Shown here: positions 41,784 through 41,970 of the stretch, one piece after another
Numbering within the stretch: the first letter of the stretch is position 1
Layout of the letters: the number at the start of each line of letters is the position of its first letter
DNA from: Alphaproteobacteria bacterium
Lineage (GTDB): Bacteria > Pseudomonadota > Alphaproteobacteria > Rs-D84
Direction of reading: 5' to 3'
Assembly: GCA_017443235.1 (NCBI GenBank)
Contig: JAFSOV010000004.1
Span: 974-64,973 of the forward strand
Length of the DNA: 64,000 bases
Notes under the pieces: generated by a model
Told to the model about the DNA's origin: nothing
What the model saw: the letters and a program-made list of their open reading frames with translations, nothing else
The model's database searches: none
Translations under genes and position numbers: made by a program

Positions 41784-41970
41784 AAAAAACCGTCAATGAC
41801 AGGTTGACGGTTGGAGGCTAGAAAACTGTAAAATCAAAAACAGTGTCACTTATTCGTTATATTCGTGACCCTCCAACCAATGTGGAGTTTTGATTTTCAG
41901 GGGTTTTCTAGACCCCGCAACGGTGTCACCCGTGCAAGTGTATTATAATCAAAAACGGTTGCAGATGCAA
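41784..41970 (-). promoter_or_regulatory. type II (CTCCAACC) leader/sRNA module, copy b
   Basis: On the minus strand: TTGCAT-17-TATAAT, GGGGT..ACCCC hairpin, CTCCA..TGGAG hairpin, GAATAT..GAATAAG box, CCTCCAACC overlapping the terminator AACCGTCAA..TTGACGGTT plus T7. Confidence 0.6.

Follow-up and report, generated by a model that had tools for sequence, protein, structure and literature searches.

A multi-copy leader RNA with two alternative predicted folds precedes a small helix-turn-helix gene in Candidatus Enterousia and its relatives

In a 64,000-nucleotide (nt) stretch of an alphaproteobacterial genome (GCA_017443235.1, contig JAFSOV010000004.1; the whole stretch is referred to as the window, and coordinates without a contig name are positions in it), a leader RNA of ~155 nt, read on the minus strand (referred to as copy b), is followed directly by a gene for a 70-amino acid (aa) helix-turn-helix (HTH) protein. 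This raises the question of whether the small protein controls the leader or is itself what the leader controls; the original prediction regarded it as the candidate cognate regulator of an autoregulated regulon. The genome carrying copy b (985 kb, 94% complete) is Candidatus Enterousia-like, and Enterousia belongs to the order Rs-D84 with genomes of less than 1 Mb: reduced-genome gut Alphaproteobacteria of ~0.9 Mb and ~900 genes (PMC12306168). The results described below suggested a different answer: copy b fairly probably is one functional representative of a family of multi-copy leader RNAs, which is confined to Candidatus Enterousia and its relatives (Rs-D84) and has two exclusive folds, with the HTH protein as an output.

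A covariance model of the leader core, from strand B to strand C in Table 1 (referred to as R1), matched copy b with 81.3 bits (E = 6e-16) and found 24 copies in the same genome, four of which were in the window: the core of copy b at 41806-41881 (-) and three sister cores (Table 1). The exact 9-mer of strand C (CCTCCAACC) or its complement occurred seven times in the window, compared with 0.21 expected by chance. In a family survey of 151 genomes, R1 matched 138, with 1 to at least 32 copies each, and scored leader matches per 1-Mb genome reached at least 40; matches in neighbouring families of the Rs-D84 order were weak. A pattern scan, using one genome per species, detected more than 116 leader loci, all in metagenome-assembled genomes from the gut with the label Candidatus Enterousia, Alphaproteobacteria, or "Rickettsiales". 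Neisseria-type DNA uptake sequences, a possible taxonomic clue, were absent. Nearly every copy was located 35-65 nt upstream of a same-strand open reading frame (ORF) having a ribosome-binding site (RBS). No Rfam family covers this RNA: the scan of the window gave no family except tRNA above threshold, with weak chance-level hits around the leaders, and no motif match to the targets of protein-dependent attenuators (PyrR, TRAP, Bgl/Sac ribonucleic antiterminator, ANTAR) was found by Rfam in the window or leaders.

The leader was significantly structured. The fold energy of copy b was -52.5 kcal/mol (z = -4.67 relative to shuffles). Among 115 model-aligned matches, in an alignment that was fitted to the model and leans towards its structure, 86% of cells were paired and 13 of the 19 pairs were changed on both sides, a result that none of 500 shuffles reached, while pairing fell to 35-53% when the partner was slid by 1-3 columns as a control. 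P1 and P2 gave the same covariation result in a plain MAFFT alignment; since its columns were unreliable for P3 and H1, P3 was scored on the model-fitted alignment, and the automatic tabulation of H2 stem covariation was too noisy to use. The pairing of the H1 stem was preserved through G-U changes in paralogues. In divergent copies, three strands changed jointly: A to CCUUCUGCC, B to GGCAGGAGG, and C to CCUCCUGCC. A structured domain with covariation, by which riboswitches are recognized, was therefore present.

In addition to these local helices, each leader tended to carry its own long-range pairing partners. For the 9 nt before C (y1 in copy b), 116 of 130 leaders contained a perfect complement of at least 7 nt in their own upstream part (5% for non-self comparisons), and the P3 loop region (y2) had an own-sequence complement of at least 7 nt in 96 of 130 (8% for non-self). 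In copy b, the pairs were x1 (CUAGAAAA, 41911-41904) with y1 and x2 with y2. The minimum free energy (MFE) structure of copy b corresponded to an OFF fold: a long-range helix of ~25 bp, in which the H2 loop x1 pairs with y1, x2 with y2, and the GGGG of H2 with the CUCC of C. The A:B hairpin and P2 lie inside this helix, and the complete terminator comes after it. When B:C was forced by constraint, a three-way junction (P1-P2-P3) formed together with the H2 and P3 hairpins, and the terminator was broken (ON fold); this fold was 4.3 kcal/mol less stable than OFF. Since C (41817-41809) and the terminator stem (41812-41788) share AACC (an overlap of the two had been noted in the original prediction), the two folds are predicted to exclude each other in the manner of an expression platform. 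The terminator was also called independently by a terminator scan: 9 pairs, a 7-nt loop, and a TTTTTTT tail to 41783.

The sequence features listed in the original prediction were all present on the minus strand (41977-41783), including the degenerate A:B hairpin CTCCA..TGGAG (41887-41883 with B at 41878-41870) and the 70-aa ORF (41759-41547). On the other hand, the distance of 28 nt given between leader and ORF was valid only when counted from the end of the stem, and was 23 nt from the end of the T-run to the ATG. Similarly, the terminator of copy b did differ in sequence from other copies, as claimed, but this GTCAA type was a subfamily trait found in all 7 HTH-type copies of this genome.

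Table 1. Coordinates of copy b, its flanking features, and the sister leader cores in the window.
Feature	Position	Strand	Remark
REP-like (repetitive extragenic palindromic) GC-rich 51-nt element, upstream direct-repeat copy	42001..42051	-	100% identical to 41479-41529; start-to-start 522
Perfect palindrome AAAACGGTTGCA-tc-TGCAACCGTTTT, then T's	41952..41977	-	Overlaps -35 box
Putative promoter: -35 TTGCAT (41970-41965), 17-nt spacer, -10 TATAAT (41947-41942)	41942..41970	-	Positional conservation
H1 hairpin GCACGG-GUGACA-CCGUUGC, 5' end of leader	41917..41935	-	Predicted in MFE fold
H2 hairpin GGGGU-CUAGAAA-ACCCC (ON state)	41900..41916	-	Loop x1, 41911-41904
x2 AAAAUCAAAA	41888..41897	-	Complementary to P3 loop y2 (41839-41830)
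A, degenerate anti-antiterminator strand CUCCA (CTCCA)	41883..41887	-	Pairs with UGGAG of B
B = GGUUGGAGG (DNA GGTTGGAGG), 5' strand of P1	41870..41878	-	Partner A or C
P2 stem GUCAC/GUGAC around near-invariant loop GAAUAUAACGAAUAA (DNA GAATATAACGAATAA)	41845..41869	-	5/5 pairs changed on both sides
P3 hairpin ACUGU-UUUUGAUUUU-ACAGU, loop = y2	41825..41844	-	
y1 UUUUCUAG, junction J3/1	41818..41825	-	Complementary to x1
C = CCUCCAACC (DNA CCTCCAACC), 3' strand of P1	41809..41817	-	Its AACC is the start of the terminator stem
Intrinsic terminator AACCGUCAA-ccuguca-UUGACGGUU + U7	41783..41812	-	DNA AACCGTCAA/cctgtca/TTGACGGTT; stem 41812-41788
RBS AAGGAGG (41774-41768) and 70-aa XRE/Cro-type HTH gene (41759-41547)	41547..41774	-	
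Cassette-closing hairpin ACGGCGCAATGCGCCGT	41526..41546		T tail on + strand only here
REP-like 51-nt direct repeat, downstream copy	41479..41529	-	
Sister leader core	53261..53336	-	Before 322-aa secreted protein; 68.1 bits
Sister leader core	28773..28844	-	Before 59-aa KHPxY-type small protein; 61.5 bits
Sister leader core, hairpin inserted in P2 loop	60321..60409	+	Before 208-aa secreted protein; 47.2 bits

From these structures, the following mechanism may be proposed. Transcription would start near 41935, and the local hairpins H1, H2, A:B, P2, and P3 would form first. In the OFF state (the predicted thermodynamic default), GGGG/x1/x2 would pair with y2/y1/CUCC in the ~25-bp helix and CUCCA of A would hold the UGGAG of B, so that the terminator hairpin and U7 would halt RNA polymerase 23 nt before the ATG, releasing the ~155-nt RNA. 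In the ON state, a signal would stabilise the junction, B would capture C, closing P1-P2-P3 in a form like that of sRNA-Xcc1 (see below), and AACC would be withdrawn from the terminator stem, leading to read-through into the HTH gene. The signal could be a small ligand, or a housekeeping protein or RNA recognising the near-invariant GAAUA...AAUAAG element of P2, which is the most evident candidate for a recognition or docking site. The HTH protein may then act downstream on DNA targets in a cascade-like manner, possibly feeding back on its own cassette.

Several variants were observed around these elements. In the leaders at 60321-60409 (+) of the window and at C5:43992-44077 and C4:63473-63552 of the genome, a short hairpin was inserted between GAAUA and AAUAAG, indicating that the conserved P2 "loop" can be an internal loop. 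The MFE fold of the leader at 53261-53440 (-) also paired the 5' H1 region with the terminator loop and 3' arm, with TTGCTTTGT at both sites; this additional pairing may be regulatory or a chance occurrence. A kissing interaction of the H1 loop with the loop of the terminator was rejected as a general feature, because the mean complementarity did not differ significantly between self and non-self comparisons either in all leaders (4.29 and 4.08, respectively) or in HTH-type leaders alone (4.68 and 4.54).

The putative promoter of copy b (TTGCAT-N17-TATAAT) was assigned by recurrence: TTGCAA or TTGCAT, followed by N17 and TATAAT (or a close variant of the -10 box), was found at an equal position before most of 21 HTH-type leaders from many species. 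The gap of 23 nt between the T-run and the ATG contained just the RBS, leaving no room for a separate promoter of the HTH gene, and this agreed with the earlier claim that one and the same switch precedes the HTH gene and the other loci. Each HTH unit was self-contained, with its own putative promoter, leader, gene, and closing hairpin; that of copy b (~0.5 kb) had the order terminator-like palindrome, putative promoter, leader, RBS, HTH gene, and closing hairpin.

The label "XRE-type HTH" given to the 70-aa protein was correct at the level of the fold, and sequence profiles gave weaker matches. Pfam scores were below the cut-offs for HTH_31 (PF13560; 18.9 bits, cut-off 27) and HTH_3 (PF01381; 15.3 bits, cut-off 23), and all NCBIfam hits were also below their cut-offs. 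A 20-member family alignment contained the XRE signature LRxAR...DAAKMF.IS...L.RYE.GK..IP together with a conserved C-terminal motif, GFC(M/L)L(R/Q)C, and the family profile matched XRE chains in PDB with E values of 6e-5 to 8e-3. The AlphaFold model (predicted local distance difference test score, pLDDT, 94.4) consisted of four helices (residues 7-20, 25-31, 36-43, and 51-69), and the top Foldseek hits were all XRE proteins with a probability of 1.0 and template modelling (TM) scores of 0.63-0.72: ClgR (M. smegmatis), C.BclI, C.AhdI, HipB, Aca2, and ImmR. Paralogues inside the genome of copy b were 46-66% identical to its HTH protein.

The association between this HTH family and the leader was strong in one direction only. 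The genome of copy b contained exactly 7 family members, all of which (7/7) were directly behind a leader, with a REP element between the terminator and RBS at 2 of the 7 loci. As an unbiased test of the association, 20 HTH genes in 20 other species were picked by place, disregarding RNA hits, and 19 of them had a same-strand leader core 45-50 nt upstream. The leader before the remaining gene (L133; G053:C3:63676-64300) had lost an internal segment reaching from mid-P2 loop to the 5' arm of the terminator; judged from its sequence, L133 is a natural variant without the attenuator, carrying the relic of a deleted leader. No HTH genes beyond the seeded ones were found in the 116 pattern-derived loci. 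In the opposite direction, 138 of the 151 genomes carried the leader and 72 carried the HTH family (E <= 1e-5), 48 of the latter with strong matches (E <= 1e-9), and at least 68 leader-bearing genomes had no hit of the HTH family, including G014 (100% complete, 6 leaders), G038 (13 leaders), G048 (16), G062 (10), and G088 (13). The leaders of G014 and G038 kept their terminators and preceded secreted Cys-rich proteins and a lipoprotein, and, in G038, also a different small HTH-like gene. Therefore, the co-occurrence proposed in the original prediction held from the HTH gene to the leader, but not from the leader to the HTH gene, and the HTH protein looks like a cargo (output) of the putative switch, and neither its sensor nor its operator.

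Other cargo did not provide a universal partner either. The KHPxY small-protein family, considered as such, was rejected because it was found in just 14 of the 151 genomes. At C14:48660-48736 (-), a leader was followed by a KHPxY-type frame, apparently without an ATG, GTG, or TTG start, which reads ...GGAGAAAATATTACA...; this may be a pseudogene or have an unusual start codon. Since no cargo protein was as widespread as the leader, the sensor would be the RNA itself or a housekeeping factor, and the search for the trigger is narrowed accordingly by placing the HTH protein at the output.

HTH-type leaders differed from the others in several respects: they had their own type of H1 loop, (G/U)UGAC(A/GA) or (G/A)UGAU(U)A, had no third 5' hairpin, and carried a degenerate A. 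The gap between ON and OFF by constrained folding was -1.2 to +10.9 kcal/mol in 7 HTH-type leaders and +7.8 to +16.9 kcal/mol in 8 others. In a larger set (21 HTH-cargo and 104 other leaders), the median gap was 6.9 and 11.7 kcal/mol, respectively, and the median energy of the A:B hairpin was -8.3 and -12.1 kcal/mol, respectively. Because of the weaker A:B hairpin and smaller gap, HTH protein would be made at a lower signal than secreted-protein cargo, and HTH-type leaders may represent a lower-threshold subfamily. This suggests a tiered design, in which regulator genes are placed behind easier-opening switches than secreted-protein genes.

Several points weigh against a triggered switch with the HTH protein as its output. 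The p-values for the differences in gap and A:B energy (0.001 and 1.6e-7, respectively) treat related sequences as independent, and are optimistic. The energy model ignores pseudoknots, and the x:y pairings could instead, or in addition, form in the ON fold as pseudoknots between loop and strand, in which case the gap would be different. A strict sigma-70 scan did not call the promoter at copy b, where TTGCAT matches TTGACA at 3 of 6 positions. The cargo of the leaders (HTH regulators, KHPxY small proteins, and secreted proteins) had no metabolic theme pointing to a ligand. Finally, other small XRE-like families were present behind leaders, at C5:39237 in this genome and behind tandem leaders in G038, and "some HTH" partner may be more widespread than the one family profiled. 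The tandem leaders (L148/L150; G038:C1:384449-384766) were 244 nt apart and shared one downstream gene, which encodes an HTH-like protein of 65 aa from another family (MRLGQEIEKIRKEQGLS...).

Regarding the trigger, a small ligand is a tentative candidate, a housekeeping protein or RNA is a possible one on which slightly less reliance may be placed, and ion, temperature, or kinetic effects are improbable. In its most extended form, which we consider rather doubtful, the proposal would be that the leader represents a novel class of riboswitches of the ON type, sensing a global signal (a small molecule or second messenger) through the Xcc1-like junction, that it is the main regulatory device of Enterousia with HTH cassettes as a low-threshold tier of a cascade, and that sRNA-Xcc1 of integrons and phages is its cis-acting kin. 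Independent of the trigger, with up to at least 40 promoter-leader units per genome, the leader is probably the most-used regulatory element of these reduced-genome bacteria.

Among alternative explanations, a mobile or selfish cassette was considered, in which spread and loss of the promoter-leader-HTH unit explain the distribution and the HTH protein resembles an orphan controller or immunity repressor. Within one genus, species carried between none and at least 21 copies of the HTH unit. The closing hairpins were of the AAAACGGCGC...GCGCCGTTTT type; those of other cassettes had T-runs on the cassette strand, while the hairpin of copy b, with its T tail on the plus strand, would also end rpmG (41299-41472, +). 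In G050, five dispersed cassettes (L143-L147) were 88-97% identical, with the identity ending at the cassette borders. Copy b lay between the two perfect 51-nt REP-like direct repeats, spaced by 522 bp, and was also flanked by inverted heptad arrays, and the rpmG neighbourhood had no cassette in 4 of 5 relatives examined, although no clean empty site was definable there because synteny with the upstream 565-aa gene was not conserved. However, no associated transposase, integrase, or target-site duplication was seen. The HTH proteins of G050 were 95-98% identical and differed only in the C-terminal tail, with coding sequences differing by 3-12%; near-identical proteins despite many synonymous differences indicate purifying selection on each copy. 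The leaders of G050 differed by up to 27%, mainly in compensating long-range segments. Furthermore, flanking repeats varied between species, and heptads did not track the HTH gene. Mobility as the principal explanation is thus possible, but somewhat unlikely.

The repeats around copy b had relatives elsewhere. A third copy of the 51-nt repeat was located at 60431-60481 (80% identical), and REP-like GC-rich double-hairpin families were also found at 24359-24406 and 42176-42223. Intergenic (TAGTGGT)n/TAGTGTT arrays with units of 6-7 nt numbered 41 genome-wide, including those at 24136-24175, 56953-56992, 60148-60187, and ~42282-42300 of the window. An array was present within 500 nt upstream of 9 of the 24 leaders, co-oriented with the leader in all 9, and an inverted array followed 5 of the 7 HTH cassettes. 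Nevertheless, heptad arrays were rejected as HTH operators, because they were found in 24 of the 151 genomes and did not track the number of HTH genes: G142 had 46 arrays without a strong HTH match, whereas G060 and G124 had at least 21 HTH genes without arrays. A different heptad, (AAGTGCA)n, was observed at the equivalent place in another species (L112).

Several features suggested that the RNA switch may be supplemented by local autoregulation, in which an HTH dimer binds only its own cassette at the palindrome DNA and/or the H1 RNA, similar to restriction-modification controller proteins or Aca2. As the original prediction noted, the -35 box (TTGCAT, 41970-41965) lies inside a perfect palindrome (41977-41952), a classic position for an operator; the H1 arm CCGUUGC is similar to the palindrome arm CGGTTGC; only HTH-type leaders have this type of H1 loop; and the structurally nearest proteins (C.BclI, C.AhdI, ClgR, HipB, and Aca2) are autoregulators, with a precedent for dual DNA and RNA binding (PMC13551039). 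On the other hand, the palindrome was present in 5 of the 7 cassettes of this genome, every one of which was behind a co-directional upstream gene, while the 2 cassettes with divergent upstream genes shared another sequence there despite belonging to different HTH subgroups. In other species, it was found in one relative examined, and in most it was either missing or located farther upstream as a terminator in its own right. Where its arms differed (TT opposite GG or GA), G-U pairing was still possible on the sense strand, as it would be for a hairpin in RNA, and H1 stems varied through G-U pairs, which break DNA symmetry. The form AAAACGG...CCGTTTT is that of the ordinary terminators of this genome (for example, 53505-53475). 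From the orientation of the upstream genes, the G-U compatible arms, and this form, the palindrome is probably a bidirectional terminator by which the cassette is insulated from the upstream 565-aa gene of the same direction, and which incidentally supplies the -35 box; it may also serve as an operator, although on sequence comparison it does not appear to be a conserved feature of HTH promoters. Autoregulation of this type is therefore unlikely, although feedback of the HTH protein on its own cassette would be compatible with its role as an output.

It is very unlikely that the leader serves mainly to encode a trans-acting small RNA (sRNA), in which case the ~155-nt terminated transcript would be the product and read-through into the HTH gene incidental. 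Its nearest Rfam relative, sRNA-Xcc1, is annotated as trans-acting, and its putative own promoter, strong predicted terminator, and terminated default fold would fit such a gene; however, the regular placement of the leaders before same-strand ORFs with an RBS, the overlap of strands A/B/C with the terminator in the manner of an expression platform, and variable parts consisting of internal compensating helices, with no conserved seed region, argue against this. The model of the original prediction, in which the HTH protein regulates all leaders or promoters in trans and is self-controlled through the same switch, is hardly tenable: although the HTH family is almost always behind a leader and is the largest single class of cargo (of 115 downstream ORFs, phmmer matched 21 and the family profile 25), and although Aca2 and Aca1 bind both promoter DNA and hairpins of the 5' untranslated region (PMC13551039), the family is absent from at least 68 of the 138 leader-bearing genomes, some of which are near-complete and contain 6-16 leaders, non-HTH leader loci have neither the palindrome nor the HTH-type H1 loop, and the divergence of the paralogues means that there is no single regulator.

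Among known systems, the uncatalogued leader RNA weakly resembles sRNA-Xcc1 (RF02221), of which its junction may be a distant relative below the family threshold. Copy b scored 34.9 bits (gathering threshold, 53) and aligned to model positions 1-87 with P1-P2-P3 in register, and no match over 53 bits was found in the whole genome. Both RNAs have a three-way junction, in which a G-rich/C-rich P1 closes two hairpins, the first with an A/U-rich loop, and Xcc1 hits in APSE phages are also directly upstream of an ORF. They differ in that the present leader adds ~60 nt at the 5' side (H1, H2, x2, and A) and a terminator overlapping P1, as in a cis-acting switch, and is chromosomal and multi-copy in Rs-D84, whereas sRNA-Xcc1, described as trans-acting, is found in Xanthomonas integron cassettes, transposons, plasmids, and phages. 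The leaders showed no integron context, with no search made for integrase or attC. The best sRNA-Xcc1 match of the genome (43 bits) was at 32564-32652 (+) of the window. This element has P1 GGUCGGGGAG/CUCCCCGGCC, an upstream anti-strand of its own, and a hairpin resembling a terminator, and is followed after 37 nt by a lipoprotein-like ORF (ATG at 32689); since R1 gave no hit there, it represents a second, more Xcc1-like type of leader. The likeness ties the leader to sRNA-Xcc1, whose action on mobile elements is poorly understood.

S-box/SAM-I, T-box, and PyrR pyr leaders share with copy b the three-strand logic (A:B plus terminator versus B:C), a covarying sensing domain, a terminator just before the RBS, and their own promoter (putative in copy b). 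The present leader differs in having no metabolic cargo theme and no known ligand, tRNA, or protein partner, and in its copy-specific long-range helix of 25 bp and unusually high copy number (reaching at least 40 scored matches per 1-Mb genome). Similarly, the HTH protein shares with C.BclI, C.AhdI, ClgR, HipB, and Aca2 the 70-residue four-helix XRE fold and a palindrome at its own promoter in copy b, but has no toxin, restriction-modification, or anti-CRISPR partner gene, is placed behind an attenuator RNA of ~155 nt, carries the GFC(M/L)L(R/Q)C motif, and reaches at least 21 copies per genome. Although the cyclic-di-GMP riboswitches GEMM-I/II have no sequence or structure match to the leader, they are similar in the type of regulon only: many copies before surface or secreted proteins and transcription factors, and not before the genes of a single pathway, a pattern typical of second-messenger sensing.

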